Positions 2,083 to 64,000 of a DNA stretch of 64,000 nucleotides are shown here, piece after piece (positions within the stretch are counted from its first letter, which is position 1; each line of letters starts with the position of its first letter). The notes under the pieces are model-generated. The model worked only from the letters and a program-made list of their open reading frames with translations, was not told where the DNA came from and made no database searches. The DNA is from an uncultured virus (IMG/VR IMGVR_UViG_3300024999_000036). Taxonomy: Duplodnaviria; Heunggongvirae; Uroviricota; Caudoviricetes. The DNA is taken from the IMG/VR virus record IMGVR_UViG_3300024999_000036. One strand, written 5' to 3'. Both the position numbers and the translations under genes were made by a program.

Positions 2083-2121
2083 ATTAAAATTTGGATTATT
2101 AATATAAATTTAATAGATTTT

Positions 2122-23675: not shown

Positions 23676-23704
23676 TTGACAGAATACTAATATAATTATA
23701 TAAT
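23676..23704 (+). promoter_or_regulatory. SigA promoter of the HU gene
   Basis: TTGACA-17-TATAAT exact consensus. Confidence 0.8.
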
Positions 23705-23769: not shown

Positions 23770-24096
23770 ATGAACAAACCAGAATTAATTACTTTTGTAG
23801 CACAAGATGCAGAAATGACTAAGAAAGATGCAGAGAAAGCAATTTTATCAACTTTAAAAGGTATTCAAACGGCTTTAGGGAAAGGTGAAAAAGTACAATT
23901 AGTGGGATTTGGTAATTGGGATATTGTAGGTAAAAAAGCTAGAAAAGGTCATAATCCAAAAAATCATTTAGAAAAAATTGATATTCCAGCAAAGAATAAA
24001 ATTAAATTTAAAGAGGGTAAAGAATTATTAGACGCTATTGCAGATTTAGAAGTTAAACCTGTTAAAGAAAAGAAAAAGAAAGGTGAAAATGAGTAG
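23770..24096 (+). CDS. hup: HU-family histone-like DNA-binding protein
   Basis: MNKPELI...GEKVQLVGFG...ARKGHNP...IPAK signature. Confidence 0.92.
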   Translation: MNKPELITFVAQDAEMTKKDAEKAILSTLKGIQTALGKGEKVQLVGFGNWDIVGKKARKGHNPKNHLEKIDIPAKNKIKFKEGKELLDAIADLEVKPVKEKKKKGENE

Positions 24097-25762: not shown

Positions 25763-26581
25763 ATGGAAAATAATTTAATGATTTTTGATAATGAAGAATT
25801 TGGAGAAGTAAGAACTATTAAAATTGATGATATACCTTATGCTGTTGCAAATGATGTATTAAAAGCATTAGGATATTCAGAAGGTAGTTGGAGAACTACT
25901 TTATCAAGGAAATGTAAAGGCGTTACAAAATGTAACGGGTTAAAAGTTAATGGAATAGAAGTAAATCTTATTCCAGAAGGTGATATTTATAGACTTATAA
26001 TTGGAAGTAAATTGCCTTCAGCAGAAAAATTTGAAAGATGGATTTTTGATGATGTTATACCTTCTATTCGTAAGCATGGTGCATACATAGTAGATGATGT
26101 ATTAGATAAAATGATTTCTACACCAGAATTTGGCATAAAATTACTTACAGAATTAAAATTAGAAAAAGAAAAAAGATTAGAAGCAGAAAATAAATTAGTA
26201 ATACAAGCACCTAAAGTAGAAAAATATGATAGATTTCTTAAAACTAATTCTACGCATACATTTACTGATACAGCAAAAATAATTTCTACTTGGTGTGAAG
26301 ATGATGGAATAAATTTGAAAATAACTGTAATAAAACTAACTCAATTATTGAGAGAAAAAGGAATTTTGTCAAAGAATAAATCTAAAGATAAATATTTAAA
26401 TCATCCTAATAAAGATTATGAAAATTATTTTCAAACAACTAGTGTGACTATTAATGAAGGAGAAAATAATGAGTTTAAACGGACATCAACTCGTGTTAAA
26501 TCAAATGGAGTTGATATGATTTATGAGTTGGTTAAAGAATATGTGAAAAGTGGTGAAGGTTTGTTTAATAAGGCTAACTGA
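25763..26581 (+). CDS. BRO-N / ANT(KilAC)-type antirepressor
   Basis: FDNEEFGEVRT, IPEGDIYRLI, AEKFERWIFDDVIPSIRKHGAY, QAPKVEKYD. Confidence 0.88.
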   Translation: MENNLMIFDNEEFGEVRTIKIDDIPYAVANDVLKALGYSEGSWRTTLSRKCKGVTKCNGLKVNGIEVNLIPEGDIYRLIIGSKLPSAEKFERWIFDDVIPSIRKHGAYIVDDVLDKMISTPEFGIKLLTELKLEKEKRLEAENKLVIQAPKVEKYDRFLKTNSTHTFTDTAKIISTWCEDDGINLKITVIKLTQLLREKGILSKNKSKDKYLNHPNKDYENYFQTTSVTINEGENNEFKRTSTRVKSNGVDMIYELVKEYVKSGEGLFNKAN

Positions 26582-31604: not shown

Positions 31605-34600
31605 ATGTCAAATCAAAACGATCTTGCTATATATTTAAAAATCTTGATCGAAAATAATTCCAAATCAAACATAGTCACAGAAACAGATAAACTTATTCAG
31701 ACACTTCAGCAAAAACTAAATAAAATAACAATTGCTCCTACTATCAAACTCCCCACTACTGCTAATATATCAGATATTGTTAATAAAATAAATAAATTAT
31801 TATCTGCAAGAATTGAAGCAAGTGTTAATTTAAAAAATATTAATTTAGGTAAATCTGGTAATATACAAGCACCAGTATCAACACAAAATACTCAAATTGT
31901 TAAAGAATTAGATGGTACTGTAAAAAAATATACAGAAACAGTAAAGAAAAATGGTGAAGTAATACAAAAAACTACTGAAATTATAGATAAAAATAAAATT
32001 ACTAAACAGCAATCTGCATCATCTCAAGTAGTAAATAATATTAATAAAGAAACTGATGCAGTTGAGAAGTTAAATAGTGAATATGGTAAATTAATTAGAA
32101 CTGTTAAATTAAAAAAAGCCAATGGAGATCCATTAAGACAAGATCAAACTTATCTAAATTCTCAAACTGGAGTTAAAACTACTGTCACTTCTAGACCAAA
32201 TCAAGAAAATATTTATAGAACAGATAGTGATTTTGGTGCTAAGAAAAATGCTGATGCTTTAAAAGAACAGATGAAATTAGCAAGGGAATCTGCAAAAATT
32301 GCTAAACAGTCAAATGATTATCATCAATCGTATTATAAAGTACAACAGAAAGCATTTGATGATAATAATAAGGAATATTTGCGTGGAGTAAAATTAAGAG
32401 AAAAAGCAGATTTAGAATCAGAAAAAAATAGACAAAAATATATTCAAAATAGAGTTAAACAAATGCAACAAGAGCAAAAACAACAACAAATAACTACTCA
32501 AAATAATGTTAAATTAATGCGTCAAGAAGCAGAAGCAAGATTAAAATATTATACTAATAGTCAAAAAATAAAAGGTACTGATTTTAATGCTGAAAATGCT
32601 GAATATCTCAGAGGTGTTAAACTTAGAGAAAAAGCTGAACAAGATGCCCAAAAAATAAAGCAAAAACAAATTCAAGATAGTGTTAAATTACTACAACAAG
32701 AGCAAAAAGAAAGAGAAAAAAGTGAACAAAATTATATAAAATCTCTAAGACAAACAGCAGAAGAAAAACTAAGATTACATCAAACAAGTGTTAAATTAAT
32801 AGATCAAGAAAATGCCGAATATTTAAGAGGAATTAAACTTAGAGAAGCAGAACAACAAAAATTTATTGTAAATCAAGAAAGAATAAATAAACAACTCAAT
32901 ACTAAAACACAAAATGCATTAGGGTTGGGTGTAAAATTTAATAATCTATCTCCAGAACAATTAGCACCTTTAGAGAAAGCATTAAATAGATATAAAACAT
33001 TAATAAATAGTATGCAACAAAAAAATATATCTGGTCAAGTAGTTTCAGATAAAGATTTGGAAAGATTATCTAGATTAGAAAATGCAATTAAAAGGGTTTA
33101 CGATCAAACTAGAATCGCTAGTAAAGATTCTAGAGGTTTTAATTTTGAACAATATCCCAAAATGCAAAATGCCGTACATGGTGCTACTAACGCTCAAAAT
33201 TATTATAATCAATCTATTATGCATGGTAAAAAATTATTAGAGGCCAATATTCAAGAAACTGAAAAATACATAAAAGTAACACAAAGACTAAGAGATGGTT
33301 CTAAAATAACAAATGTAACTGCTTATGTTAATAAATTAACTGGTGAAACACATAAATTTAGTGAATCCATGAAAGATTTAATGACTAGAACATGGGATGT
33401 AGGTTCTGCATTTAAGACTGCCTTGCAAAAAATACAGCTTTGGGCAGGAGCTACTGGTTTAGTATATGGATTTATTAATGGATTAAAGCAAATGGGTAAA
33501 GAAATAATAGAAATCGATACAAAATTAACCGAATTAAGTAAAGTATTAGATAATAATACTGATTGGTCTAAATTAATGGAAGATACTGCTGAGAGTGCTA
33601 ATAAAATGGCAAGATCGCTTACAGAAGCGTTAGATGCTGAAATAGAGTTTGCAAAACAAGGTTTTGAAGCAATTCAAGCAGTAGAATTAGCAAGAACAGC
33701 GATGTTAGGTGCTAACGTAACTGGCTTAAAAACAAGTGAAATGGCTAATTATCTTACTGGAGCATTAGCACAGTTTAATATTGAAGCAGAAAAAAGTTCG
33801 ACAATAATCGACAAATTAAACGAAGTTGATAATAACTTTGCTGTGACGAGTATAGGTCTAGCGCAATCGATAAACAAAGCTGGTGAGGCAGCACAACAGT
33901 ATGGGGTTGATATAAATAGCTTGATCGGTTATACTACAGCCATACAAACAGCCACACGGGAATCTGGAAATCAAATAGGAAATATGTTAAAAACTGTATT
34001 TTCTAGGATAAATATGGATAAAACACAAGAACAACTTGTATCTTTAGGAATTGCTGTTAAAGATGTTACAGGTAATCTTCTTCCATTAAATTCCATTTAC
34101 CAATCTGTTGCGACCAAATGGGATGCTATGTCTAGAGCAGAGAGAACCGCTACTGCAGAAGCACTATCAGGCCGTCATCACATAACGAGATTAATGGCAT
34201 TATTTGACAACTGGAACATCGTGACAGATGCAACCGCTACAGCACAAACATCTTTAGGTTCAGCAATTGAAGAAAATTATAAACATTTAAATTCATTGGA
34301 AAGTAAAATAAATCTTAATAAAGCAGCATTTCAGGAATTTTCTTATGCTTTAGGTGAATCAGGTGTAAAAGGTGCTATGATTGCTGTATTAGGTGTTATT
34401 GCTCAATATATAAATGGTTTTACAGAACTTACACAAAATTATAATGGAGTAGTAACAGCAACATCTATTTTAGGAACAGCATTAATTCTTTTAATCCCTA
34501 AAATAAAATTAGAATATACTAATTGGATTTTAAGAAATAATCTTGTAGCTACTGCTATACCATTAAATCATAGACTAGCAATATCTTATACTATGCTTGG

Positions 34601-37600
34601 CAATATGATTAAAGGGGCAACTGTAAGTTTAATTGCTTTTTCTAAAGCAATGTTAAAAAATCCTTTAACATGGATAATTGTTGCAATTACTGCTATCCCT
34701 ATGTTCTTGGGACATTTAAAGCAAGTAAGAGAAGAACAAGAGCAATTAAATAGAACATATGAAGAAACTAAGAAAAAATTAGATGAAATTCTTGAAAAAA
34801 CAAATAAAATTGGTCAAACATCATTACAAGATATTAATGATATTGATGCGACTGTTAAAAAATTAGATGAATTAAAAAATAAACTTCAAGAAATAAATCA
34901 AGAACATAGGTCTGGTGCTTTTGGGTTTCAATCAGCATCAGTAAAAGATTTATCAAAAGAATTAAAAGATTTGGCAGCACAAATGGGAATAAATATTACG
35001 CAATATCATACAGTAGATGAAGTTTTAGAAGCAATAAAAGAAAAACAAGACGAATTATCAGGAAGTATAGGTAATGCAAAAGATAATTCAACAGAATATC
35101 AAAAAACATTGATAGATCAAGCTAGTAATCAAACAAAAGTTGCCGATAATAATGTTAAATTAATTGATACATATCAAGAATTAAGTAATAAGAGTAATTT
35201 AACAGCAGAAGAACAAAAGAAATTAAATGATATAACTGCAATATTAACTCAAAGTTATCCACATTTAATAGATGCTAAAGGCGATACTATAACCATATCT
35301 AATAAAGTTATTGAAGCAATAAGGAAAGAAGCACAGCAACAAAAGAAAACAGCAGATGAGAATGAAAAAGCAACAAAAAGACAAATTATAAGCAATAGAG
35401 GAAAACTTCAAGATCAAATTAAGACAAGTTTAGGTATAATAAAATCCCTTAGTGGAGAGATAACAGCATTACAAGCATTAAATAATGCTAAAATTGACAC
35501 AGATTATTTATCTGAAGCACAAGTACAAAATACTTTAGATAGAATGCAAGGGAAAAATACACCATATTCTAGTGGTGTTGATATATTATTAGGGGAAATA
35601 AAAAGTCCTAATTCTACTAAATTAAATGCATTGCGTAATAAATACAAAGAAGAAAAAAATATATTAAAAGAAGCATATGATAGTATAGCGAGTATTGATG
35701 ATGCTTTAAGTAGTTCAATATCAGATTTAACTCAATCAACTAAAGATAGTGCAGATTCATCAAACTCCACATCAGAAGCAAAATCAGCAGAATCTCTAGC
35801 ATGGGAAAAAGTAACAAATAATATCAAGTCATACGACAATGCTCTTAAATCCTTAGAGGACACCACTTCTAATATGATTAAAGGTTCTAAAGCACGTAGA
35901 GATTCCCTACATGCTGAAAACTTAAAAATAAAGGAGCAGATCGAATATTTAAAGCAACAAAGAAGTGGATTAAATAGTACATCTGCTTCTTCTAATTCTA
36001 ATGTATATACTCCTACATCAACAGGTAAAGCAAAAGGTATATTAGATATTGCATTAGATTCATTAGGCACTCCTTATAAATGGGGAGGTAACGATCTTAA
36101 AATTGGTGTAGATTGTTCAGGATTAGTACAACAAGCATATAGAGAAGAAGGAGTAAGTGTTCCTAGAGTAACATATGATCAATATAAACAAGCACCAATT
36201 AAAGGATTAAAACAAAATGAGTTACAACCTGGAGATTTAGTATTCTTCAATAATTTAGCACATGTTGGAATATATATGGGCAATGATAAATTTATTGAAG
36301 CACCTCGTACTGGTTTAAATGTAAGAACATCAACACTATCTTCAAGAAGTGATTATTATGCTGGAGCAAGATATTTATCTGGTGAAGGTACATCACTAGT
36401 AACATCCTCCTCTAATTCAAATCTAACATATGAAAAACTAGCAGAAGATCGTATTAAACATCAAGAAGAAATCAATGCTAAGATATTAGAATTAGAAAAG
36501 AAATTTGCTGAAAACTCTAAAGAATGGTACACAGATTTATGGTCAGAGTCGGATAACATCATTAATGAATTTGAGCAGAAAAGTAATTTCTCTAAAATGT
36601 TTTCTGAAAGTATGTCTAAGTCATCTCCTAAATATAGAGAACAATTAGACATACAAAAAAATAGCACAATAGGTATTCAGAAACAATTAGCAGAACAAGC
36701 TAAACAAATGGATCAAGCTATTGAAAACATGAAAAAAGGTATTATAGAAGGTACGTTTAAAGATGAGCAATTCTTAAATGAAACAATAGAAAAAAGAAAA
36801 GCATTATCTGCTGAATGGTGGAATAAGCAAAAAGAAATTATTGATAAGCAAGCAGAAATAACATCTAGTGAAGTTGAAGAATTAACATATAAAATTGATA
36901 AATATAACAACATAATATCTATTTCTCAAGCACAACAAGAAATGAATGAAAAAGGTAGTATAGAATATAATAACGCTTTAAAAGATGAAGTTATTCAATA
37001 TACTAATATAGCATCTGCTCTTAAAGCAAAACAAGTAATATATCAGAAAGAATTAGCTGATACTCTTGTTGGAACATTGAGATATGAGGAATTACAAAGA
37101 GCAATTTCAGATACAACTAAAGAAATAATAGACAATGAAAAAGCACTATATAATAAAAAAATATCTATAGCAGACGATATTATATCAATATACAAAGACA
37201 CATATGAAAAACAGAAAGATTATGCTTTAGATGCTATAGATGAACAAATTAAAGCAGAAGAAGATCGTCATGAGCAAGCAATAAAAAATATTGAAGACGA
37301 AACGAAACAATATGAGGATTCTATCAATGAAAAATTAGCCCTATTAGATAAGCAAGCAAATCAAGAAGATTATACTAAAGATTTAACTAAACTACAAAAA
37401 GAAGAAGCAGAAATTAAAAAGAAAATAGACGTATTAGCATTAGATGATAGACACGAAGCAAATGCTAAAAGAATTGATTTACAAAAAGAATTAACAAGTA
37501 AGCAGGAAGAAATTGAAGAATTACAGACAAATCGTTCAAGAGAGTTAAGGAAAGAAAATCTTGAGGATCAATTGGATGCATATAAGAAAGACAATGATGC

Positions 37601-38543
37601 AAAAAAAGATTCAGAAGATGATAAGTATGACACTATAAAAGATAATTTGGATGATCAAAAAGAGATTACTGAAAAGTATTATGAAAACTTGATAAATGAC
37701 GAGAGAAAGTTTGCTCAAATTAGAGAGGATATTATTAAAGGCAATTTCAGTAATATTCAAAATGAATTATCTAATTTTGAAAGTATTGCAAGTTCTAAAT
37801 TTAAAAGTTTAGGTACTAATATACAAACTAATTTTATTAATCAAATTAAAAATGCTTTATCTGCATTGCAAAGTTTTAATGATGCTAGTGGTGCTGATAT
37901 TGGTGGTAGTAGTGGTTCATCGAGTAATAATTCTGGTTCGAATAATTCTAGCAATCATAGTCAGTATTATCCTTGGAAATCACAGATTAATAATATAATT
38001 TACGATAAGAAAATGTGGCAACAAGGATATGAAACTGGTAATCAACAGATGATGAGAGATGCTGAAAATGAAGCAAAAATATATTATGATCAAATTCCAG
38101 ATAATATTAAAAGTTTATTACAAGGTATGGACTATACTTCTGCTAAAAGTTGGTATGATAGTAATGTTTACCATGAGGGAGATGTAGTTGGTGGAAGTGT
38201 AAAAGGATCAAGAATAGCAAATATTATAGATAAATTATTTAATAAAGGTCAGAATGAACAAATATCTAAATTACTTAATGGTGAAGTAGTATTAAGTAAA
38301 CGAGGAATTGATAATTTCGTTCCAATGTTACAAAATATGGTATCTAGTTTTACTTTACCTTCATTTAATCTTCAACCGCAAGGTGCTGGTGGATTAAAAA
38401 TTGATAGTTTATTAACTATTAATGGTAATGTAGACAGAGCAGTTATGCCACAATTAGAGGATTTGGTTAATAAAACAGCAAATAAAGTGGCAGAAATACA
38501 AAAGAAAAATTTAAATATGAGTGGAATATTTAGGAGAGTGTAA
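31605..38543 (+). CDS. Tape measure protein with NlpC/P60 peptidase domain
   Basis: 2312 aa; TP901-like core (DKLNEVDNNFAV, TRESGNQIGN); LGTPYKWGG..DCSGLV..HVGIY. Confidence 0.92.
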   Translation: MSNQNDLAIYLKILIENNSKSNIVTETDKLIQTLQQKLNKITIAPTIKLPTTANISDIVNKINKLLSARIEASVNLKNINLGKSGNIQAPVSTQNTQIVKELDGTVKKYTETVKKNGEVIQKTTEIIDKNKITKQQSASSQVVNNINKETDAVEKLNSEYGKLIRTVKLKKANGDPLRQDQTYLNSQTGVKTTVTSRPNQENIYRTDSDFGAKKNADALKEQMKLARESAKIAKQSNDYHQSYYKVQQKAFDDNNKEYLRGVKLREKADLESEKNRQKYIQNRVKQMQQEQKQQQITTQNNVKLMRQEAEARLKYYTNSQKIKGTDFNAENAEYLRGVKLREKAEQDAQKIKQKQIQDSVKLLQQEQKEREKSEQNYIKSLRQTAEEKLRLHQTSVKLIDQENAEYLRGIKLREAEQQKFIVNQERINKQLNTKTQNALGLGVKFNNLSPEQLAPLEKALNRYKTLINSMQQKNISGQVVSDKDLERLSRLENAIKRVYDQTRIASKDSRGFNFEQYPKMQNAVHGATNAQNYYNQSIMHGKKLLEANIQETEKYIKVTQRLRDGSKITNVTAYVNKLTGETHKFSESMKDLMTRTWDVGSAFKTALQKIQLWAGATGLVYGFINGLKQMGKEIIEIDTKLTELSKVLDNNTDWSKLMEDTAESANKMARSLTEALDAEIEFAKQGFEAIQAVELARTAMLGANVTGLKTSEMANYLTGALAQFNIEAEKSSTIIDKLNEVDNNFAVTSIGLAQSINKAGEAAQQYGVDINSLIGYTTAIQTATRESGNQIGNMLKTVFSRINMDKTQEQLVSLGIAVKDVTGNLLPLNSIYQSVATKWDAMSRAERTATAEALSGRHHITRLMALFDNWNIVTDATATAQTSLGSAIEENYKHLNSLESKINLNKAAFQEFSYALGESGVKGAMIAVLGVIAQYINGFTELTQNYNGVVTATSILGTALILLIPKIKLEYTNWILRNNLVATAIPLNHRLAISYTMLGNMIKGATVSLIAFSKAMLKNPLTWIIVAITAIPMFLGHLKQVREEQEQLNRTYEETKKKLDEILEKTNKIGQTSLQDINDIDATVKKLDELKNKLQEINQEHRSGAFGFQSASVKDLSKELKDLAAQMGINITQYHTVDEVLEAIKEKQDELSGSIGNAKDNSTEYQKTLIDQASNQTKVADNNVKLIDTYQELSNKSNLTAEEQKKLNDITAILTQSYPHLIDAKGDTITISNKVIEAIRKEAQQQKKTADENEKATKRQIISNRGKLQDQIKTSLGIIKSLSGEITALQALNNAKIDTDYLSEAQVQNTLDRMQGKNTPYSSGVDILLGEIKSPNSTKLNALRNKYKEEKNILKEAYDSIASIDDALSSSISDLTQSTKDSADSSNSTSEAKSAESLAWEKVTNNIKSYDNALKSLEDTTSNMIKGSKARRDSLHAENLKIKEQIEYLKQQRSGLNSTSASSNSNVYTPTSTGKAKGILDIALDSLGTPYKWGGNDLKIGVDCSGLVQQAYREEGVSVPRVTYDQYKQAPIKGLKQNELQPGDLVFFNNLAHVGIYMGNDKFIEAPRTGLNVRTSTLSSRSDYYAGARYLSGEGTSLVTSSSNSNLTYEKLAEDRIKHQEEINAKILELEKKFAENSKEWYTDLWSESDNIINEFEQKSNFSKMFSESMSKSSPKYREQLDIQKNSTIGIQKQLAEQAKQMDQAIENMKKGIIEGTFKDEQFLNETIEKRKALSAEWWNKQKEIIDKQAEITSSEVEELTYKIDKYNNIISISQAQQEMNEKGSIEYNNALKDEVIQYTNIASALKAKQVIYQKELADTLVGTLRYEELQRAISDTTKEIIDNEKALYNKKISIADDIISIYKDTYEKQKDYALDAIDEQIKAEEDRHEQAIKNIEDETKQYEDSINEKLALLDKQANQEDYTKDLTKLQKEEAEIKKKIDVLALDDRHEANAKRIDLQKELTSKQEEIEELQTNRSRELRKENLEDQLDAYKKDNDAKKDSEDDKYDTIKDNLDDQKEITEKYYENLINDERKFAQIREDIIKGNFSNIQNELSNFESIASSKFKSLGTNIQTNFINQIKNALSALQSFNDASGADIGGSSGSSSNNSGSNNSSNHSQYYPWKSQINNIIYDKKMWQQGYETGNQQMMRDAENEAKIYYDQIPDNIKSLLQGMDYTSAKSWYDSNVYHEGDVVGGSVKGSRIANIIDKLFNKGQNEQISKLLNGEVVLSKRGIDNFVPMLQNMVSSFTLPSFNLQPQGAGGLKIDSLLTINGNVDRAVMPQLEDLVNKTANKVAEIQKKNLNMSGIFRRV

Positions 38544-52973: not shown

Positions 52974-53162
52974 ATGAATCAAGATATTCAATTATTCCCT
53001 TGTTATAGTTTAAATTTACGTAATTATTTAACGTCCAAAGGATTGAAATATAAACTTGTAGGGTTAAATCCAAATAGTCATAAAATGTTTTGGTTATTTA
53101 TTGATAATGAACAATTAAATAAATATCTAATTGAGTGGAAAAGGACTAAACCAAAAATTTAG
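52974..53162 (+). CDS. DUF5659-like small protein
   Basis: CYSLNLRNYL..G......NP....FWLF pattern. Confidence 0.6.
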   Translation: MNQDIQLFPCYSLNLRNYLTSKGLKYKLVGLNPNSHKMFWLFIDNEQLNKYLIEWKRTKPKI

Positions 53163-53208
53163 TTCTTTTTTATTTTGTAAAATTTTTAAAGTGAAGGGAG
53201 AGTATTAT

Positions 53209-54306
53209 ATGTTAATTAGTGATTGGGTTAAAATTAAGTGGAGTTATAGTAATAGAAAATATTATGAACCTATAGGATATATATTTACCAAAGCAGGAGA
53301 TGAATTTTTAGTAAAAGTAGAAGATTTAGCAAAAGGTTCTAAAACAAGTATTTTAACTCTTTGTGATTATTGTTTAGAAAAAGGCATTCAAACTTTAATC
53401 GATCAAGATTTTTATACTTATAATAATAAACAAAATCAATTAATTAATAAAGATTGTTGTAAAAAATGTAGAAGTATAAAAATAAAAGAATCTAATAAAA
53501 TTAAATATGGGGTAGAATGTACTATGCAAATAAAAGAATTTGCTGAGAAATGTGTTCAAAGTCAACGATTAGATTTTAATATAATTATTGAATTATTTAA
53601 AAATAAAAATTATGAATTACTAACTACAGAAAACGAATATAAAAATGCTTCTACTAAAAATTTAAAATATATTTGTAATAAACATAAATCAAAAGGTATT
53701 CAAGAAACTTCGTATCATAGTGCAGAATTAAATAAAGATAATTGTGAATATTGTGCAGGAGAAAAACAATCTAAAAGACAAAAGTTACCTTTGACGTATG
53801 TTGAAAGTATATATTTATCCAATGATTTAATATTATTAGAATATGATTATAAAAAATCTTCAATCCCAATGAAATGTTATTGCATTAATCATCCTGATAA
53901 AATTCAAAGTATTAGATTAGCTAATTTATTAAATGGTCAAGGTTGTAAATATTGTGGTATTGAAAAAAGAAGTAGAGAAAATCATCCTAACTGGAATCAA
54001 AATAAAACAGATGAAGATAGATTGATTTCTAGATATTCACAAAAAGAATATAGAGAATGGAGAAAGAAAATATATGAGGAAGATAATTATACTTGTCAAG
54101 TTTGTGGTCAAGTAGGTGGAAAACTTAATGCACATCATAAATATAATTATGGCAATTATCCGCAATATAGGTTTGATATTAATAATGGAGTAACTTTATG
54201 TGAAAGTTGCCATATAAATTTTCATATTATATATGGTAGAAAAGATAATACACCAAGACAATTTGAAGGTTTTAGAAAGAACCTTCATTTTTTATTGCAA
54301 TATTAA
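53209..54306 (+). CDS. HNH homing endonuclease
   Basis: SD AAGGGAG plus ATG 53209; YTCQVCG...LNAHH...NNGVTLCESCH..FH. Confidence 0.85.
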   Translation: MLISDWVKIKWSYSNRKYYEPIGYIFTKAGDEFLVKVEDLAKGSKTSILTLCDYCLEKGIQTLIDQDFYTYNNKQNQLINKDCCKKCRSIKIKESNKIKYGVECTMQIKEFAEKCVQSQRLDFNIIIELFKNKNYELLTTENEYKNASTKNLKYICNKHKSKGIQETSYHSAELNKDNCEYCAGEKQSKRQKLPLTYVESIYLSNDLILLEYDYKKSSIPMKCYCINHPDKIQSIRLANLLNGQGCKYCGIEKRSRENHPNWNQNKTDEDRLISRYSQKEYREWRKKIYEEDNYTCQVCGQVGGKLNAHHKYNYGNYPQYRFDINNGVTLCESCHINFHIIYGRKDNTPRQFEGFRKNLHFLLQY

Positions 54307-54338
54307 ATTATCAATATAACAAAGGAGAGATTAACAAT

Positions 54339-55262
54339 ATGTTAACCATAAATTTACTTCCTGGTCATGGAATAAGTAATATTAAAAATGTCCTCTTTGA
54401 TCCTGGAGCAAAAAATAAAAATGGTACACAAGAAGCAACAGGGACTAAAATATTAGGTGACAAATTAAAATCTAAATTAGAATTTAATGGATTTAAAGTT
54501 AATCTATTAAATGATAGAGATGTAAATGCACAAATTAATTTCGTAAATAATAATAAATGTGATTTAGCGATTGCATTACATTTTAACGCATTTAATGAAA
54601 AAGTATCTGGTGTAGAAGTATTATATTCAGATGTAGCACCAGGATATAATAAAAATACTACTTTAAAATTTGCTGATATATTGTTAAATCAACTAATTAA
54701 AGATACTGGAATGGTTAATAGAGGATTGAAAAAAACAAATAGTGGAGTGGGCATAATCAAACGTACAAAATTTCCTACTGTACTTAGTGAGAACGGATTT
54801 ATTGATCATCCTACAGAATATTTATGGGCAAAAGATGATAATAAATTAAATATTCTTGCAGAATCTCATTGTAAAGCTGTTTGTGAATATTTTGGCATTG
54901 AATATAAAGATAATAAAAATCAAAAGGAGATTGATAGTGATATGACAATATTACAAACAAAAAATTCTATACAATTTAATTACAATGGAGAAAATAAAGA
55001 AATAGAAAATTACATAATCAACGACACTTCCTATGTAAACACAAGACAAATCATAGATTTATTCTCAAAAATTCTTAACTATGACGAAAATATTCGTACT
55101 ATTTTTATTAAAGACAATATAGTTAAGATTGATGTAAATGGTAATATAATTAATGGTCAACTCATTGACGATAAAAGTTTTTGCCCAGTAAGAGAATTGT
55201 GTAAAAGTTTAGATAAAACAGTTGAATGGGATGTGATTGATAGGAAGGTTATAATCAAATAA
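54339..55262 (+). CDS. Endolysin, N-acetylmuramoyl-L-alanine amidase (Amidase_3) with C-terminal stalk-like domains
   Basis: PGHG, E, ALHFNA and LSENGFID Zn-ligand motifs. Confidence 0.88.
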   Translation: MLTINLLPGHGISNIKNVLFDPGAKNKNGTQEATGTKILGDKLKSKLEFNGFKVNLLNDRDVNAQINFVNNNKCDLAIALHFNAFNEKVSGVEVLYSDVAPGYNKNTTLKFADILLNQLIKDTGMVNRGLKKTNSGVGIIKRTKFPTVLSENGFIDHPTEYLWAKDDNKLNILAESHCKAVCEYFGIEYKDNKNQKEIDSDMTILQTKNSIQFNYNGENKEIENYIINDTSYVNTRQIIDLFSKILNYDENIRTIFIKDNIVKIDVNGNIINGQLIDDKSFCPVRELCKSLDKTVEWDVIDRKVIIK

Positions 55263-55305
55263 ACAATAATATTAAATAAATTATACAATAAAGGAGTGTT
55301 CTATT

Positions 55306-55734
55306 ATGGAACAATTAAATCAATTTATCTCGTTAGAAAATTTAAGGACTTCATTAACTAGTTTAACTATTTTAATATGTTTTTTAACTCAATATTTCAA
55401 AGATGCTATTGATAATTTATGCAGTAAACTATTAAAGAAAACATTTCCTACTAAGTGTTTTGTTTTTATCTTATCTGAAATTCTACTATTTACAATTGAA
55501 TATTTATCTAAAACTAATTTTAACGGAGAAATGATATTCATTACATCAATTAAAGCGTTATTTATTAGTGCTTTTGCAGTAATTTCTGTTGAAAAAATGA
55601 TGAAGAAAAAATCTGAATTAAATAGAGATTTGAATAGTAATGAAGTTGTTGAAATAGTTAGTGAAGATTTATTGAGTAATAATATGGTTAATGGTTTAGT
55701 GAGTGATGGAAATATTAGTAATAAAGTAAAGTAA
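55306..55734 (+). CDS. Holin
   Basis: Two to three hydrophobic segments; LTQYFKD motif; follows the amidase. Confidence 0.65.
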   Translation: MEQLNQFISLENLRTSLTSLTILICFLTQYFKDAIDNLCSKLLKKTFPTKCFVFILSEILLFTIEYLSKTNFNGEMIFITSIKALFISAFAVISVEKMMKKKSELNRDLNSNEVVEIVSEDLLSNNMVNGLVSDGNISNKVK

Positions 55735-55859
55735 CCTCCTCTACCTTTTAATTTACCTCTCCCCCGCCACTCACCTACCGCTTCTATCATTGATTATTTG
55801 GCAATAAAATGGTAATAGGGGATAAGGTGAAAAATACTTGACATTTATAAATTTAAATT

Positions 55860-55948
55860 AAAAAACAAATAACACTAGATATGATTATGAGTACCCAATA
55901 ATCTAGTGTTATTTGCCGAAAGTTAATGCGAAAACTTAATATTTTAAT
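55860..55948 (-). ncRNA. Candidate hairpin small RNA 1
   Basis: TTGACT-17-TATAAT (55983-55955); 15-bp stem, 20-nt loop, U-tract. Confidence 0.65.
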
Positions 55949-56008
55949 ATGAGTATTATAATACATTTAATGTAAAAAGTCAAATTTAAAGAATATGATA
56001 AATATGAA

Positions 56009-56082
56009 TAAAAACAAACAACACTAGTAAGAATGGAGGCGATCCAAAAACCTAGTGTTGTTTGTTTTGTTTGATACCCCTC
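56009..56082 (-). ncRNA. Candidate hairpin small RNA 2
   Basis: TTGACA-17-TATAAT (56117-56089); 17-bp stem, 24-nt loop, U-rich 3' end. Confidence 0.65.
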
Positions 56083-56132
56083 ATGTGTATTATATTATAT
56101 ATAATTTAATATGTCAAAAGGTAATATCTACA

Positions 56133-56201
56133 CAAAATTGTTGTTTTATCACGATTTTTTAAGAAATTAATAGTCAACAAAGTATTATAAAATAAGGGTT
56201 T
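56133..56201 (+). repeat. Bipartite dispersed repeat, copy 5
   Basis: CAAAATTGTTGTTTTAT-29 nt-AAAGTATTATAAAATAAGGGTTT. Confidence 0.7.
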
Positions 56202-56408
56202 ATAAATTGGGTATATTTGGAATATTTAAGATGTTGCGATATTTTTGAGTTATTTGGAGAGATGAATCGGATTAGGATAGAAAGTGTACGTTGATTATTT
56301 AAGTGTGGGATTTGAGGGTAATTATGGTTTAAATTGATTTTTTATTGAAAGACACTTCTTAATCGAAGTGTCTTTTTTGTTTTTATTATTCAAATAATTA
56401 AAAGGAGA

Positions 56409-56627
56409 TTGATATTCATGGAAAACAAAATTCCTGTAGTTACTATTCACAGTCAGGCAATGGCTGGATTTTTGATGCTTCACAGATTTATTCTAATTGA
56501 TCAACGTGAAGATTTAAAGAATAAAAATAAGAATGTATTTATATTTAAAGATTCTAAAGAAATAAGAAATGCAATGAAAAAATATTCAGAACAAAAAGAA
56601 ATAATAAATAAAATCATATTCGGTTAA
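56409..56627 (+). CDS. DUF5659-like small protein
   Basis: IHSQAMAGFLM...DLKN...NVFIF.DS pattern. Confidence 0.65.
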   Translation: MIFMENKIPVVTIHSQAMAGFLMLHRFILIDQREDLKNKNKNVFIFKDSKEIRNAMKKYSEQKEIINKIIFG

Positions 56628-56665
56628 TTCTAATATTCTTATTCAAAGGAGGTTATTCAAATAGT

Positions 56666-58135
56666 ATGGGCAAATATATTTCAGATATTATCACATCAGA
56701 TGATATAGATAAATGGAATTCTAATAAATTAGTATTTATAGAAGCATCAACGGGAAAAGGAAAATCTCACTTTATTAAACATACTCTATCAAAACATAAT
56801 GAAAATAAGAAAATTTTAATGTTAGTTAATCGGTCAATTATAAAAAGACAATCAGAAGTAGAAATAGGTATTAATGATAATATTGTTATAAAAACGTATC
56901 AATTATTATCAGAATTAATAGTAACTAAAAGTCCTAAAATTGCAGATTTTATAGATTTTGATTATATAATTTGTGATGAATCACACCATTTTTGTGAAGA
57001 AAGTGAATTTATATTTAATACTGATGTATCATTTAATTGGGTAATGAATCAAAATGCAATTAAAATATTTATGACAGCAACAGCAAAATACATAAAAGAA
57101 TATATCGTAAATGAATTAAAATTAGAAATTGAATATTATTATATAGAAAATAAATATGATTTTATTGATAAATTATATTTTTATGAAAATGATAAAACTA
57201 TAGGTAAATTATTAATTGATTTACCAGAAGATGAAAAAGCAATATACTTTACTAGTGCAAAGAAAGCATATGAAATGAGTGAAATACTTAAATCATATGT
57301 TTTTTATTGTTCTAATAATAATTATAATTATCGTCAATATGTTGATCCTGAGAAAATAACTTATATTGAAGAAAATGAGAAATTTGAAGAACAGGTACTT
57401 TGTTGTACGAAAGTTGCTGATTGTGGTTTTAATTTAAAGGATGATAAAATTAAACACATAATTGTGGATATTGCTGATTTATCAAGTATCATACAATGCA
57501 TTGGACGTAAAAGAATAGAATTTAGTGATAAAATTATATTATATATAAAAGATAAAAAAGGTAATGCTATTGTTCGTAAATTAGAGAATCTTCAAGAGAA
57601 AATAAAATATGCTAATATTATACTTGAAAAAGGTGATTTAGCATTAATAGAAGAATATTCACATAAAAATACATACGGAAATCTAATTTATGATATAGTG
57701 AATAGAGAAAAATTAAGAATTGAGAAAAAAGTAAATCCATTAATGCATTATACATATAATCAAAATATAATGTTGTATAAAGAAATATTAGAAGATAAAG
57801 AAGATGGATTTAAGAATAAATTGCTTGAAAGGATGGGTATAGAAGATATGGAATACACCGATCTTGAAAAAGTAATGGATGGTTTAATATTAGAAGATAT
57901 ATTAGATAAATATATTAGTGTAAAAATGTTTAAAGATGAACAAAAGAAGTTTAAAGATATATTATTTGATAAACTATTAAATAGCCCTAAAGCAAATCAT
58001 GGGTCTGTAGGTTTAAAAACAATTAATGCATTATTTGAAGAAAATAAGTTAAAGTATAAACTTATATCTAATAAAGAAACTAGTAGAAAATCTGAAAATT
58101 ACAAAAAAATGTATTGGATGATTATAAAATTATAA
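56666..58135 (+). CDS. Superfamily 2 (DExH) helicase-like protein
   Basis: ASTGKGKS, ICDESHH, MTAT, IQCIGRKR. Confidence 0.85.
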   Translation: MGKYISDIITSDDIDKWNSNKLVFIEASTGKGKSHFIKHTLSKHNENKKILMLVNRSIIKRQSEVEIGINDNIVIKTYQLLSELIVTKSPKIADFIDFDYIICDESHHFCEESEFIFNTDVSFNWVMNQNAIKIFMTATAKYIKEYIVNELKLEIEYYYIENKYDFIDKLYFYENDKTIGKLLIDLPEDEKAIYFTSAKKAYEMSEILKSYVFYCSNNNYNYRQYVDPEKITYIEENEKFEEQVLCCTKVADCGFNLKDDKIKHIIVDIADLSSIIQCIGRKRIEFSDKIILYIKDKKGNAIVRKLENLQEKIKYANIILEKGDLALIEEYSHKNTYGNLIYDIVNREKLRIEKKVNPLMHYTYNQNIMLYKEILEDKEDGFKNKLLERMGIEDMEYTDLEKVMDGLILEDILDKYISVKMFKDEQKKFKDILFDKLLNSPKANHGSVGLKTINALFEENKLKYKLISNKETSRKSENYKKMYWMIIKL

Positions 58136-58423: not shown

Positions 58424-58906
58424 ATGATACCTAAAAGAAATGTTTTAAATAAATTAATTTTACTATTGTTAATTAAATTATCTGGTAAAATAAACGGAGC
58501 AACTCGTCTTCAAAAATTAGTATTTTCTGCTCAATCAGAAGGAAGAAAAAATAAATATCTAACATTTAATTATAAATTTATTCGTTGGCATTATGGGCCG
58601 TATTGTAAGGAATTAACAAAAGATATTGATTTTTTATCTAAATCAGAATTTATTATTATTAATGAAGACAGTAGTTTTGAATTAAAAGAAAAGGGATTTA
58701 AAATTATCCAAGGTGTTGAATTAAATATGATAAAGGAAATAAAAAATTACTTAAAAGAAATATTAGATAAATATAATCATCTAAATATTATAATTCTTCT
58801 AAGACATATTTATGATGATTACAATATTGAAAAAGAGTATGAAATGGGAGATGTGATACTTCCTGTATTAAATTTTTATGATTATGAATATGAATATTTT
58901 GAATAA
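58424..58906 (+). CDS. Panacea/SocA (DUF4065)-like antitoxin-domain protein
   Basis: GATRLQKLVF...FIRWHYGPY motif. Confidence 0.7.
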   Translation: MIPKRNVLNKLILLLLIKLSGKINGATRLQKLVFSAQSEGRKNKYLTFNYKFIRWHYGPYCKELTKDIDFLSKSEFIIINEDSSFELKEKGFKIIQGVELNMIKEIKNYLKEILDKYNHLNIIILLRHIYDDYNIEKEYEMGDVILPVLNFYDYEYEYFE

Positions 58907-59415: not shown

Positions 59416-60981
59416 ATGAGTAAACCACTAGATAAGGGAAAAATGATTCAAGCATTAAAAATATTTTATGAAAATAACGGTAGAACACCATTGTATATTG
59501 ACTTTAGTAAAGGAACACCCAATGCTGCAACTTATAGCAAATATTTTGGTTCTTGGGACAATGCTTTAAAAGAAGCAGGATTATTAGAAATCAAAAGTCC
59601 AAAAAGACAACCAAAAGTTTATAGTGATGAAGAATTATTAGATAAATTAAAAGATTATTGTATTAAATATGGTAAAACTAAACCAAGACTTGACACAAAC
59701 AACGATGAATGTCATTCTAATGCAACATATATTTCTAGATTTGGTAGTATGGAAAATGCTTTAAAATTAATTGGGATGGAACATTTGTGGGGAGATAAAA
59801 ATAAATTTATTAAACAATGGACTAGAGAAGAAATAATAAATGAATTAATAAAATTTTGTAAAGAAAATAATAGGTTTCCTAAAACTGATGATTTTGAAAA
59901 TACTTCTCCTAGTACAAACGCAATTAGGAGACAATTTAATAGTAATTGGAGTAATATTTTAGAAGAATTAAAAGAATATGTTCCTGAACTAGAAAATGAA
60001 ATAAATGATTATTTATATAAATATACAAAAGAAGAAATGATTAATAGATTAAAATTGTTATATAAAGAAAATAATCAAATACCAACATATGAAATTATAA
60101 CCAACACAGATTATATGCCAAGTTATAAATCATATCATATAAAATTTGGTTCACTTAAATTAGCATTAATAGAAGCAGAATTATATGATTTAATAGAAAA
60201 TAAAGATAAAAAGAAATATAATAAATATCATACAGAAGATGAATTATTAAAATTATTAAAAGATTATATTATAAAACACAATAAAATACCAAATTATAAT
60301 GATTTAAATGAAAGTATTGATATGCCCAGTATTAATACTTACGAAAATAGATTTGGTTCTTATCTTATTGCATTAGAATTAATAGGTTATAAAGATCAAC
60401 ATATATCTAATAATCAAACTTTAAAAAGATATACAGATGAAGAAATGATTAATAATATGAAAATATTATATAATGAACTTGGTAGAATACCAAATTTTGA
60501 AGATATTGATTTATGTGAATATAGTGCAAATTCATCAACTTATTATAATAGATATGGCAATTTAACTAATGTTTTTGATTTGTGTGGTATACCTTATAAT
60601 AAATCTGATAAAAGAAGATATAATAATTTTGGAAAATATATTAAAAAATATATAACAGATAAAGGAGCAATATGTTTATCTAAAAGTGAATATATAATAA
60701 CTTGTTGGTTAGAATTACATAATATTATATTTGATAAAGAAGTTTATTATAAAAAAGTCTTAAACAATGATAATAGTAGAAGAAAATTTGATTGGATTAT
60801 TTATCATAATAATAAAATATACTATGTAGAATTTTTTGGTTTAATTAGAAATAAGTTATATAAACAAGGAGCATTACAAAAAATAGAAGATTGTAAAAAG
60901 AATAATATTGATTTAATAGCAATTTATCCAAAAGATTTAAAAAATAAATCATTAGAAGAAATATTTAGTTTTTTAAATTAA
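59416..60981 (+). CDS. Homing-endonuclease-associated-repeat protein with C-terminal PD-(D/E)xK nuclease
   Basis: Six repeats of the type YTDEE.L..L......G..P......PS..TY..RFGS...AL; KFDWII...YVEFFG. Confidence 0.8.
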   Translation: MSKPLDKGKMIQALKIFYENNGRTPLYIDFSKGTPNAATYSKYFGSWDNALKEAGLLEIKSPKRQPKVYSDEELLDKLKDYCIKYGKTKPRLDTNNDECHSNATYISRFGSMENALKLIGMEHLWGDKNKFIKQWTREEIINELIKFCKENNRFPKTDDFENTSPSTNAIRRQFNSNWSNILEELKEYVPELENEINDYLYKYTKEEMINRLKLLYKENNQIPTYEIITNTDYMPSYKSYHIKFGSLKLALIEAELYDLIENKDKKKYNKYHTEDELLKLLKDYIIKHNKIPNYNDLNESIDMPSINTYENRFGSYLIALELIGYKDQHISNNQTLKRYTDEEMINNMKILYNELGRIPNFEDIDLCEYSANSSTYYNRYGNLTNVFDLCGIPYNKSDKRRYNNFGKYIKKYITDKGAICLSKSEYIITCWLELHNIIFDKEVYYKKVLNNDNSRRKFDWIIYHNNKIYYVEFFGLIRNKLYKQGALQKIEDCKKNNIDLIAIYPKDLKNKSLEEIFSFLN

Positions 60982-61032: not shown

Positions 61033-62160
61033 TTATAATACCTGTGACATCTCTTCATTTCCTAATACATGCGAAGACATTACTTTTTGAACATATGATT
61101 GAGTGCTAGAATTATTGATTATTCTCTTTCCTTTAGTTGTTTCTCTAAATATTTCATTCCAAATTGGATTATTTTTATCTAAGAAATTATTTTCATTCAA
61201 TTTGTATAATTTTTCTACTAAATTGCTTTCATTCATTAATTCTTTTGCTAATCTCATATAACCATACCATGCGAGACTTTCAATCGTCATTCTCCTAGTT
61301 TTTAATTCATTTCTTAAATGTATTTCTATTTGACCCATTTCACTTTTTTGTAAATTAATTAAAATATTAAAGAATTTAACTAAATAATCCCCTATTTCTT
61401 TAACTTCTTCTTTTGTCTTGATAGAAAAATTATTTCTTAATGCTTGAATTAATGTAGAAAAACTAACCAAATAAGGATTGGTAGAGGTAATTGAATTGTT
61501 AACATTATCAACTCTGCATTTTAATTCACTGTTTTCAATTAAATAGGTTAAAGTATTATTTGATAAATCTTCTATATTTAAAAACTCTTGTCTACTTTTA
61601 CTTACACGACCAATATTCATATTTAACTCTGCAAATAAAGTTTTACATTTTTCTTCGTCATAATTAGTAATTACTGTGACAAAATAAAATTCTTCAGGAT
61701 TAGGCCAATTAATACCTATTTTTTGTCTTTTTGGATATTCTTTCATATACCTTACGCAACTTAAAATTCTATGATTGCCATCAATTATAATATTAGGTTT
61801 CCCACCAGATAATGTTTTATTTCCAGGATTATATACCAAAGGGAATTCATCATTGTAGGAAGACATATAGTTTAATGATAATAGTCCTCCTCCTAATTTT
61901 TGATTGACTAAACATTCCATAATTTGATTTACTTTTTTGGTAGAAAATATCATCTTAAGATTGTTATTTTTATCCATTTTATAACCACGCTGAATATTAC
62001 CATCGTAATAAATACTTCCACTACTATGAAGTTCTGAGATTTGCTTAATATTCAATGGAACTAAATATTTTTTCTGCCCTTGGTTGTCTACTATTTCTGT
62101 CACATTCTCAAATTCCCAATTAATCATTTCTTTCTTTTCTAATACACTAGCAACACCCAT
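61033..62160 (-). CDS. DGQHR/DndB-like (ParB superfamily) protein
   Basis: NIQRG, IIDGNHR, LFAELN motifs. Confidence 0.75.
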   Translation of the reverse strand: MGVASVLEKKEMINWEFENVTEIVDNQGQKKYLVPLNIKQISELHSSGSIYYDGNIQRGYKMDKNNNLKMIFSTKKVNQIMECLVNQKLGGGLLSLNYMSSYNDEFPLVYNPGNKTLSGGKPNIIIDGNHRILSCVRYMKEYPKRQKIGINWPNPEEFYFVTVITNYDEEKCKTLFAELNMNIGRVSKSRQEFLNIEDLSNNTLTYLIENSELKCRVDNVNNSITSTNPYLVSFSTLIQALRNNFSIKTKEEVKEIGDYLVKFFNILINLQKSEMGQIEIHLRNELKTRRMTIESLAWYGYMRLAKELMNESNLVEKLYKLNENNFLDKNNPIWNEIFRETTKGKRIINNSSTQSYVQKVMSSHVLGNEEMSQVL

Positions 62161-62439: not shown

Positions 62440-64000
62440 TTATATCTTTTTTGCAATTTCCCAATGAAAATAATCATATCGTACCAAGTTTCTAATATCA
62501 AAAGAATGTGTACTTGGTACACTATGAATATCAACAATAATTCCGTAAAATCCTAGATCATATTCATCTTCCTTATCCTCTTTTTTCTTAACGATGATAC
62601 GATCTATTAATATTTCTATAATTTTCCTTTTATATTCATAACTTATTTTATCATTAATAATATCATCTTTATATTTGTTCATTATTTCAAATACTTTAGA
62701 TGAAATTTCATTACTATATTTTTCTTGTTCTATTCTTTCATTGATTTTTTTAATTTCGTCTTGAAGATTTTTAATTTCAATGTTTATTTTAGATAAATCT
62801 TTTTCCATTTCATTTTCTGAAATTAAATCCAACATAAACATTTTTTTAATTTTTTCACGATTTTTATTCTTATCCTCTAAAAGTTTACTATGCAATTCAA
62901 ATTGTTTTAATAAAATATCATCATTTTTTTTCTCTCCTAATTTTTCCTTAAGTAAATTAGGATTAGTACACATATCTTTAATTTCATTCCAAACAGCATT
63001 ATCTAATTTATCAGCATGTATTGTTTTACTAAGACATTTATACGCCCCCATAGTTTTAGGATTTTTACCATTACATCTATAAACAAAATATTTCTTATTT
63101 TTATATCCATTATAAGTAGTACAAATTAATGATTTACCGCATATACCACATTTTAATTTAGATCTTAATAAATAATCATATTTTGTATTTGATTTTTTAT
63201 ATGTTTTATTTTCTTCTGCTTGTTTACGTGCTAATCCATATAATTCTTCTGAAATTATTGATGGTACTTCTGCATAAATCCAATCTGATTCATCTCTCCA
63301 AGTATATGTTTTCTTTTTATTTCCACTAGCAGTTCTTTCTCCTATGATTTTTTTACTTTGTCTTCTATTATAAATATATTTACCTATATATATTTCAGAT
63401 CGAAGTATTCTACTAATTGAACTTTTACACCAATTATCAGATTCTTTTCTTTTAGGTTGTACCCCCATATCAGATAATTTTGTTCCCATTTCGGTTAAAC
63501 TTAATTTTTCATATACGTACCACTTATAAATTAATTTAACAATTTCTGCTTCTTGCTCATTTATGATTAATTTACCTTCAATTAATTCATAGCCAAAAGG
63601 AGCAGACCTCATAGGCATAATTTTACCATCACGAGAAACTGCTTTTTCTCTTCCACTAGTAGTTCGCATTTTAATTCTTGCTAATTCATATTGCCCAAGT
63701 GAACTCATCATATTGAAGAATAATTGTCCTTCTGGTGTAGATTTAAATTCCATATCTACAAAAACAAGTTTAACATCATTGTTTTCAAATTCTCTACACA
63801 CAATTAATTTATTTGTTAAATCTCTTGAAAATCTATCAGGATGCATACAAATAACACCATTAATTAAACCATGTTTTATATCTTCTCTTAGTTTGTTTAA
63901 TTCAGTTCTGTCTAAATCCTCTCCTGTTTCTCCTTCTTCGCTATATATTTTCCATTCATTTATACCCATATTTTTTAATTCTTTTATACATTTTTCTGTT
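62440..64000 (-). CDS. Large serine recombinase (integrase), 5'-truncated by the window edge
   Basis: DRFSR, APFGY, recombinase domain, CGICG..YRC Zn ribbon, coiled coil; frame is open to base 64000. Confidence 0.92.
   Translation of the reverse strand, partial: TEKCIKELKNMGINEWKIYSEEGETGEDLDRTELNKLREDIKHGLINGVICMHPDRFSRDLTNKLIVCREFENNDVKLVFVDMEFKSTPEGQLFFNMMSSLGQYELARIKMRTTSGREKAVSRDGKIMPMRSAPFGYELIEGKLIINEQEAEIVKLIYKWYVYEKLSLTEMGTKLSDMGVQPKRKESDNWCKSSISRILRSEIYIGKYIYNRRQSKKIIGERTASGNKKKTYTWRDESDWIYAEVPSIISEELYGLARKQAEENKTYKKSNTKYDYLLRSKLKCGICGKSLICTTYNGYKNKKYFVYRCNGKNPKTMGAYKCLSKTIHADKLDNAVWNEIKDMCTNPNLLKEKLGEKKNDDILLKQFELHSKLLEDKNKNREKIKKMFMLDLISENEMEKDLSKINIEIKNLQDEIKKINERIEQEKYSNEISSKVFEIMNKYKDDIINDKISYEYKRKIIEILIDRIIVKKKEDKEDEYDLGFYGIIVDIHSVPSTHSFDIRNLVRYDYFHWEIAKKI

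Follow-up and report, generated by a model that had tools for sequence, protein, structure and literature searches.

The locus behind the lysis cassette

The window, by which we mean the whole stretch of 64,000 nucleotides analysed here, is phage or prophage DNA of 25% GC whose plus strand carries nearly all genes. Besides a tape measure gene it encodes tail proteins, one of them with a YOMG-type N-terminus, and its terminase is 41–45% identical to the YonF-type terminases of SPbeta-like large siphoviruses; we regard the source phage as large and temperate. The endolysin of the lysis cassette points to Bacillota. The last gene of the cassette encodes a 142-aa protein that looks holin-like by position and shape; it matched no Pfam or NCBIfam family, and a search of 5.8 billion proteins returned only three relatives. 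The 675-nt gap between this ORF (55306–55734, plus strand) and a DUF5659 gene is occupied by two units arranged head to tail on the minus strand (55860–56117), opposite and just behind the lysis genes. Each unit consists of a sigma-A-type promoter, a short leader, a hairpin of 15–17 bp with a loop of 20–24 nt, and a U-run. All of these elements had been described in the original prediction, and each was found in its place. The features are as follows:

31605–38543, tape measure gene
54339–55262, plus strand, endolysin with Amidase_3 and Cu_amine_oxidN1 domains
55306–55734, plus strand, end of the lysis cassette: holin-like protein of 142 aa, three hydrophobic segments plus a charged tail
55735–55857, plus strand, interval from the holin-like stop codon to the sRNA B gene
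55858–55949, minus strand, predicted sRNA B, ∼90 nt, with predicted ends
55865–55860, minus strand, T6 run of unit B
55915–55901 with 55880–55866, minus strand, perfect 15-bp stem of unit B
55900–55881, minus strand, 20-nt loop of unit B (24 nt with the 13-bp core stem)
55937–55920, minus strand, small 5′ hairpin in the conserved 45-nt leader of unit B
55955–55983, minus strand, promoter of unit B (TTGACT, 17 nt, TATAAT; 11/12 matches)
56006–56084, minus strand, predicted sRNA A, ∼75 nt, with predicted ends
56068–56052 with 56027–56011, minus strand, perfect 17-bp stem of unit A
56051–56028, minus strand, 24-nt loop of unit A, GTTTTTGGATCGCCTCCATTCTTA
56089–56117, minus strand, promoter of unit A (TTGACA, 17 nt, TATAAT; 12/12 matches)
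56347–56386, plus strand, first gene-strand intrinsic terminator past the lysis cassette (12-bp stem, 6-nt loop, T-run)
56409–56627, plus strand, DUF5659 gene
56666–58135, helicase gene

Unit A has a leader of ∼15–30 nt, a loop that contains an inner UGGA/UCCA mini-helix and the motif CCUCC, and a U-run after the stem, and the stem of unit B reaches 17 bp when G-U pairs are counted. Both predicted RNAs fold into the hairpin, with minimum free energies of −26.8 kcal/mol for sRNA A (z = −5.7) and −22.1 kcal/mol for sRNA B (z = −5.8), each compared with 200 shuffles. The window has two occurrences of the stem core pattern; 100 shuffles gave an expectation of 0.00. The two promoters are the top two promoter-like sites within 54000–58000. 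As sites with at least 11/12 promoter matches are not rare in a window of 25% GC (13 observed versus 9.4 in shuffles), the promoter call for both units rests on conservation. Two more 12/12 TTGACA-17-TATAAT sites lie elsewhere on the plus strand of the window, at 23676 and 25533, upstream of the ORFs 23770–24096 and 25763–26581.

The units appear to be non-coding. sRNA B contains no AUG, and ORFs of at least 20 aa in 55735–56408 are either not conserved or lie outside the sRNA transcripts. An AUG at or beside the possible start of sRNA A opens a 10-codon frame (56082–56052, minus strand; MRGIKQNKQH) that ends in the stem. One relative, L216, has a 9-codon frame at this place and the remaining A units have no AUG; the leaderless frame in sRNA A is probably not coding. 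ARAGORN gave no match on either unit, an Rfam 15 scan of 54500–57500 at E-values up to 10 gave four matches (E 4.7–9), all outside the units, and blastn of the unit region against 50,697 phage records gave no match.

The surroundings carry other features of their own. Between the sRNA promoters and the terminator that starts at 56347 on the plus strand lies a conserved non-coding block (56130–56340, both strands), nearly free of G on the minus strand, with counterparts at 2650–2920 of L117 and upstream of the units of L205, L216 and L228; it may be a further RNA or regulatory region. To the right of the units, a protein with a weak Panacea (SocA-like antitoxin) domain (58424–58906, plus strand), a DndB-like protein (61033–62160, minus strand) and, at the right end of the window, a large serine recombinase (62440–63969, minus strand) are typical of the accessory and integration end of a temperate phage. 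An HNH gene (53131–54306, plus strand) splits the lysis cassette, with a 164-aa gene on one side and the endolysin on the other; six homing-endonuclease-associated repeats are found in a protein encoded at 59416–60981 (plus strand), and a 974-aa protein with endonuclease-VII-like stretches is encoded at 27911–30835 (plus strand). These three endonuclease-like genes suggest homing-endonuclease traffic in the phage.

Homologous units in related phages

A search for the stem in other phages, which the original prediction had proposed together with a catalogue of loops, yielded 38 distinct B-type units after removal of duplicates, with 29 distinct loops, and 13 A-type units. All of them stem from uncultivated SPbeta-like phages in a small number of related metagenomes; three viral contigs (L080, L117 and L122) hold true relatives, and many more were obtained from the metagenome scan. 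The promoter TTGACT-17-TATAAT is exact in 37 of the 38 B units, the exception being L232, whose loop is decayed too, and a T-rich tail is present in 37/38. The 13 A-type units sit upstream of a B unit and have TTGACA/TTGACT-17-TATAAT-like promoters at the equivalent position. In four relatives (L199, L220, L222 and L233) a third hairpin type lies upstream of A, giving arrays of up to three units; its stem is related (CAAATAGTAACTAGG...CCTAGTGCTATTTG) and its loop is AT-rich. The leaders of A and B have an AAG...CUU hairpin in common, and the top of the stem, CTAG(G), is shared as well; therefore the two look like paralogues.

In G001, a relative of 151,782 bases, the sRNA module is 93% identical to that of the window and most other DNA cannot be aligned. 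Separate repeated long hairpins, with the arms CTATATATTGT or ACTATATGTAG (L243–L250), occupy many intergenic places of the same genome, for example at 36854, 66638, 73241, 83174 and 89967; they are unrelated to the sRNA units. Other candidates were discarded. A first broad stem pattern run on viral contigs returned 115 loci that were nearly all chance matches, with L080 as the sole true relative; L096, a long stem next to a tRNA-like stretch, was judged unrelated. A scan of the genome collection returned 51 loci, nearly all of them generic AAAAAACACTAG...CTAGTGTTTTTT terminators, and the C. difficile matches among them (L135 and L153), located between dinB-like and transporter genes, are not homologues.

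Compensatory changes in the stems

None of the 12 core stem pairs is broken in any of 36 aligned B units. The T/C with A/G change between the two stems of the window, read as compensatory in the original prediction, recurs across this alignment: the pair is U-A in 31 units, C-G in five and broken in none. L254 and L255 have another B stem (ACGTTAG/CTAACGT), which is complementary again. Among the 13 A units, 97.7% of stem cells pair, compared with 40–50% when the partner is slid, and three pairs have changed on both sides; the covariation score was reached by 0/500 shuffles, a count to which the tool's warning about related sequences applies. Counting G-U pairs on the sRNA strand makes the stem 1–2 bp longer in 28 of the 38 units and shorter in one, which speaks for RNA of that strand and against the opposite strand or DNA. 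Together, conservation and covariation give good support for the view that the units are genuine small-RNA genes of a new family, apparently paralogous and non-coding, each with its own predicted promoter and terminator.

Conserved core, variation and inversion of the loops

To compare rates of change, we used mean pairwise distances over 31 loci (435 pairs):

stem, 0.041
leader, 0.144
loop, 0.265 (∼73% pairwise identity)
third codon positions of the neighbouring holin-like gene, 0.40

Thus, a constant scaffold with a more variable loop, as originally proposed, is borne out. The loop varies more than any other part of the RNA and is still constrained, as it changes more slowly than the third codon positions next door. 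The B loops of the 36 units align to the consensus AAUUGGGUAUCCAUCUUAU, in which UUGG, UA and C positions are invariant or at least 90% conserved, and the predicted UUGG motif is found in most A loops also. Across diverged homologous loops the core reads UUGG(G/A)UA..CCAU. A G-U-rich UGG-N4-CCA mini-helix is possible in B loops and GGAU-N4-AUCC in A loops, which are mostly GUUUUGGAUAUAAAUCCUUUC, and the 3′ halves of the loops are CU-rich. The anti-Shine-Dalgarno motif CCUCC, also part of the original prediction, is indeed present in the A loop of the window; among relatives it occurs in the identical loop of G001 and in L216, and the other A loops are without it. Complementarity between A and B loops can be seen by eye in some relatives and is absent in the window. 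Mimicry of the 16S rRNA 3′ tail by loop A and of the initiator-tRNA anticodon loop by loop B was set aside as a feature of the family, because the likeness is confined to this phage and its closest relatives.

The loops had further been described as swappable or programmable, and this did not hold. All are homologous versions of a single sequence and share a conserved core, their rate of change is below that of the adjacent third codon positions, and the two units with changed stems carry canonical loops: those of L254 and L255 are identical to the loops of L224 and of L216/L241. Between loci, greater distance in the holin-like gene does not bring greater loop distance, which argues for mosaic exchange at this boundary.

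Four units differ in another way, in that the loop, 19–21 nt long, is present as an exact or near-exact reverse complement, with unchanged flanks and the remaining gene intact. The B loop of L220 is the exact reverse complement of that of L233, and the B loop of L239 of that of L216/L241; the A loops of L198 and L233 are likewise inverted. L220 and L233, found on contigs of a single metagenome data set, have identical leaders; one of them has a normal A with an inverted B loop and the other the opposite. Assembler k-mers are usually longer than 13–17 bp, and since the stems are of this length we take the inversions as real events. For the phage of the window itself, contigs of four DNA runs from one study carry 55700–56429, with no difference in three runs; they gave no joint or other sign of loop flipping, at a resolution at which contigs miss rare variants. 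Recurrent exact inversion of the loop inside an intact gene is unusual for an sRNA, and it offers a natural test between cis and trans action because a trans-acting seed should not survive inversion.

Convergence with the lysis genes and missing terminators

Neighbours were counted at 38 loci, a set that includes a few duplicate contigs:

amidase endolysin, 33/38
three-segment hydrophobic protein of 117–142 aa, immediately convergent, 31/38
87-aa zinc-ribbon-like gene between the hydrophobic protein and the B unit, 13/38
helicase, 7/38

The units are hence linked to lysis genes, and the helicase module to which the original prediction had tied them is a neighbour at a minority of loci. The B unit is on the strand opposite to every neighbouring gene and always convergent with the lysis cassette; as all loci are homologous and syntenic and were drawn from a small set of related metagenomes, this constant orientation counts once and not 36 times. 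No gene-strand intrinsic terminator was found between the convergent stop codon and the B hairpin at any of 36 distinct loci. Eleven loci, including the window, have a gene-strand terminator that is located beyond the sRNA genes; in the window it lies beyond both (56347–56386, plus strand), and therefore read-through from the lysis cassette would carry the antisense of both sRNAs. At several loci the whole gap between two same-strand genes is taken up by the sRNA gene, the next start being 61–102 nt from the stem.

The first 60 nt after the holin-like stop codon contain on average 22.6 C versus 4.5 G (27 loci). In the window, this conserved C-rich, G-poor tract (55735–55795, plus strand) may serve to load Rho or to sequester a Shine-Dalgarno sequence. 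At the loci with the 87-aa gene, the start of the tract, CCTCCTCTA, is complementary to TAGAGGAGG ∼75 nt downstream. The supposedly intergenic gap of 675 nt is densely functional, which has consequences for annotation. In L080/L215, a 397-aa ORF (1809–3002, minus strand) lies between the holin-like gene and the conserved block beside sRNA B. It matches NCBIfam guided_TnpB (E 3.8e-20; 72.5 bits, cut-off 100) and no Pfam family, and it looks like an IS insertion; as it is found in 1/38 loci, it is not part of the sRNA module.

Target searches in phage DNA

Pairing partners of the loops were sought in phage DNA. The 11-nt match between one of the loops and the start of the 974-aa gene (27912–27922), pointed out in the original prediction with the caution that it might be chance, is present, as is another 11-mer at 58877. 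As a target it does not stand out: the duplex has −18.3 kcal/mol, whereas the best matches of 20 shuffled loops range from −16.2 to −21.3 kcal/mol. The best duplexes of either loop in the 64-kb window and in G001 stayed within the range of 20 shuffled loops, and an exact k-mer search for trans targets gave nothing above background. A degenerate complement of the loop core occurred only in the sRNA gene itself in G002 and G003; in G001 it had two extra matches, both in ORFs, compared with one for a control pattern. Matching loops to phage translation-initiation regions, as had been proposed, was equally negative: for the genes of the endolysin, the holin-like protein, cluster-2 and cluster-3, shuffled loops paired with the start regions as well as B loops did.

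A cis-antisense model and its alternatives

We tentatively favour, with less than even confidence, a model where the units act as cis-antisense countertranscripts of read-through from the lysis operon, similar to SR6 of SPbeta. Host sigma-A RNA polymerase would transcribe the units in the lysogen or in early infection, heading for the 3′ end of the lysis cassette and halting at each unit's own hairpin and U-run. RNA of the gene strand, leaving the holin-like gene without an intrinsic terminator until 56347–56386, would carry the mirror image of both hairpins. The sRNAs would pair with this read-through RNA, the first contact being loop to loop (kissing) at the exposed UUGG/GC-rich core, and the duplex would make the lysis or late transcript less stable or reduce its downstream expression. 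As sRNA and target would derive from one DNA, changes in the loop, or inversion of the whole loop, would keep the match; such a matched pair would account for loops that vary and flip on a fixed background of promoter, leader and stem. The constant convergent position, the lack of intervening terminators, the tolerance of loop change and inversion, and the SR6 precedent are our reasons for preferring this model. Against it, read-through of the lysis transcript is assumed, and the C-rich, Rho-loading-like tract could end that transcript before the sRNA genes. The small hydrophobic toxin ORF of type I systems is absent, the neighbour being a 142-aa protein. Moreover, a purely cis role does not need a conserved loop core, and identical loops on different stems point to a sequence-specific partner.

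These last points lead to the main rival, which we consider possible but on the whole unlikely: trans-acting 'moron' sRNAs made from the prophage, whose CU-rich loop would block the ribosome-binding region of a host mRNA or an unseen phage mRNA, the complement of the loop being Shine-Dalgarno-like (for example AGGAUGGA, GGAGG or AAAGGA). The conserved core UUGG(G/A)UA..CCAU, the persistence of canonical loops in L254 and L255 despite altered stems, the slower change of the loop relative to third codon positions (0.265 versus 0.40), and the CU-rich 3′ halves, with CCUCC in the A loop of the window, speak for this rival. The zone behind the lysis cassette is the usual place of prophage accessory genes, so the site, together with a promoter and terminator for each unit, would suit such a role. 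However, no target in the 64-kb window or in the 151,782 bases of G001 was better than for shuffled loops; the complement of the core was confined to the sRNA genes in G002 and G003 and close to control in G001 (2 versus 1), and no pairing was seen with the start regions of four neighbouring gene families. In addition, a seed is usually the best-conserved part of an sRNA and here it is the loop that varies most, and the four units with inverted loops would present the complement of the seed, yet their promoters are intact.

Four further readings rank below these two. A decoy or protein-binding hairpin, in which a phage or host protein binds stem and loop core or the RNA mimics another, would account for the conserved core with its small apical helix (UGG-N4-CCA in B, GGAU-N4-AUCC in A) and for the failure to find an RNA target in the phage DNA searched; the A loop of the window, moreover, is one that we take to resemble the anti-Shine-Dalgarno tail of 16S rRNA. 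We nevertheless think it improbable, as only lysis genes co-occur with the units, the rRNA-like loop is restricted to the window, G001 and partly L216 while other A loops differ, and an asymmetric protein site would not survive loop inversion. Little credence is likewise given to a boundary element, whose strong convergent promoters and terminators would mainly insulate the late lysis operon from the variable accessory region, or act there by transcriptional interference, with the RNAs as by-products. The units do lie exactly where conserved lysis genes meet variable neighbours, sequence distances of the sRNA module do not follow those of the holin-like gene, and no feature is better conserved than the promoters; but leader and loop core are conserved far beyond the needs of a by-product, compensatory changes keep the stems paired, and the loops are much larger than a terminator needs. 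A DNA hairpin or cruciform serving as a recombination, nicking or replication site, with the repeats as protein sites and loop flipping as part of the mechanism, seems very improbable to us. Perfect inverted repeats, four independent loop inversions and a quasi-palindromic core speak for it, but the promoter 45–90 nt upstream and the T-run directly downstream in 37/38 units would have no role at a DNA site. The G-U pairs point to RNA of one strand, the units lack a linked recombinase or HUH-type gene, and the contigs of four DNA runs of the window's phage contain no joints. What we hardly credit at all is a programmable guide or antisense array working with the neighbouring helicase. In its favour are the constant stem with a more variable loop and a helicase next door whose similarity to a Cas3-like C-terminal domain is weak and below threshold (E 0.0025). 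The loops, however, are homologous variants and not unrelated spacers, the repeats are inverted and not direct, and every unit has its own promoter and terminator; the helicase is adjacent at 7/38 loci, a TnpB-like gene lies near a unit at 1/38 loci, apparently as an insertion, and no targets in the phage DNA searched matched above shuffled controls. From the phrase 'programmable antisense or guide RNA array', an antisense mode thus stays plausible, and the programmable array is not supported.

An extension of the preferred cis-antisense model, which we offer as a long shot, is that the loops are specificity alleles of an RNA-based control of lysis or immunity, sRNAs of a prophage pairing with the read-through RNA of an incoming related phage. 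If this were true, cross-phage pairing would drive loop diversification among co-occurring phages, hairpin-mediated loop inversion would be a rapid switch of the U-turn side of a kissing pair, and the seed of an sRNA would change through DNA flipping.

Comparison with known systems

Among the closest known RNAs are the kissing-loop countertranscripts of plasmids, such as ColE1 RNA I, R1 CopA, pT181 RNA I and par RNA II of pAD1. Like these, the units combine constant stems with variable loops that would set specificity, the target would carry a mirror hairpin (putative for the units), and a YUNR-type UUGG stands at the 5′ side of the loop; this U-turn motif, by which kissing-loop countertranscripts are recognized, is at least 90% conserved in the 36 aligned B units. 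Unlike the plasmid RNAs, which have loops of 5–8 nt, the units have loops of 19–24 nt with an inner mini-helix, and they lie in the context of a phage lysis cassette. Trans-acting sRNAs of prophages include DicF, IpeX and the anti-sRNAs of EHEC prophages. The predicted units resemble them as small, independently transcribed RNAs in a prophage accessory zone, but have no sequence relation to them and no target found, and belong to a Gram-positive-type phage.

The resemblance to CRISPR mini-arrays, solitary repeats or omega-RNAs is a repeated constant element beside a variable segment of 20–24 nt. It ends there, as the repeats of the units are inverted and form the arms of a single hairpin, all loops are homologous, and promoter and terminator belong to each unit; neither direct repeats with unrelated spacers, nor a linked effector gene, nor matching targets in the phage DNA searched were found. 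A plain intrinsic terminator would share the U-run but has a loop of 3–8 nt instead of 19–24 nt, and the only same-strand feature upstream of the units is the conserved promoter 45–90 nt away.

Also close are the type I antitoxin RNAs of SPbeta and of the skin element, and the phage of the window itself belongs to the SPbeta-like group. According to PMC5848175, SR6 is a sigma-A-driven antisense RNA of 100 nt between yonT and yoyJ of SPbeta, the locus gives a polycistronic RNA without typical terminators, and action is through RNase III. SR6, SR4 (bsrG) and RatA (skin element) share with the units a sigma-A-driven RNA of ∼100 nt opposite prophage genes (predicted here), a place at the 3′ end of a gene or between two genes whose transcript has no typical terminators, and an own, possibly leaky, terminator. 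The units differ in that they do not overlap a coding region, form two or three tandem paralogues, and have no Rfam match and no detectable homology to these RNAs. They also differ from type I antitoxins in having no small hydrophobic toxin ORF (under about 60 aa), the convergent gene encoding 117–142 aa. The general kind, antisense or regulatory sRNAs of prophages, is thus already known, and what appears to be new is the family and its arrangement: tandem paralogous hairpin sRNAs with large loops at the boundary of a lysis cassette, with recurrent loop inversion. If expressed, the units define a new family of phage small RNAs without Rfam match, in one to three tandem paralogues and tied to the lysis-cassette end of SPbeta-like phages, and they would extend the RNA-level control known from the type I systems of SPbeta to the lysis module of its uncultivated relatives.
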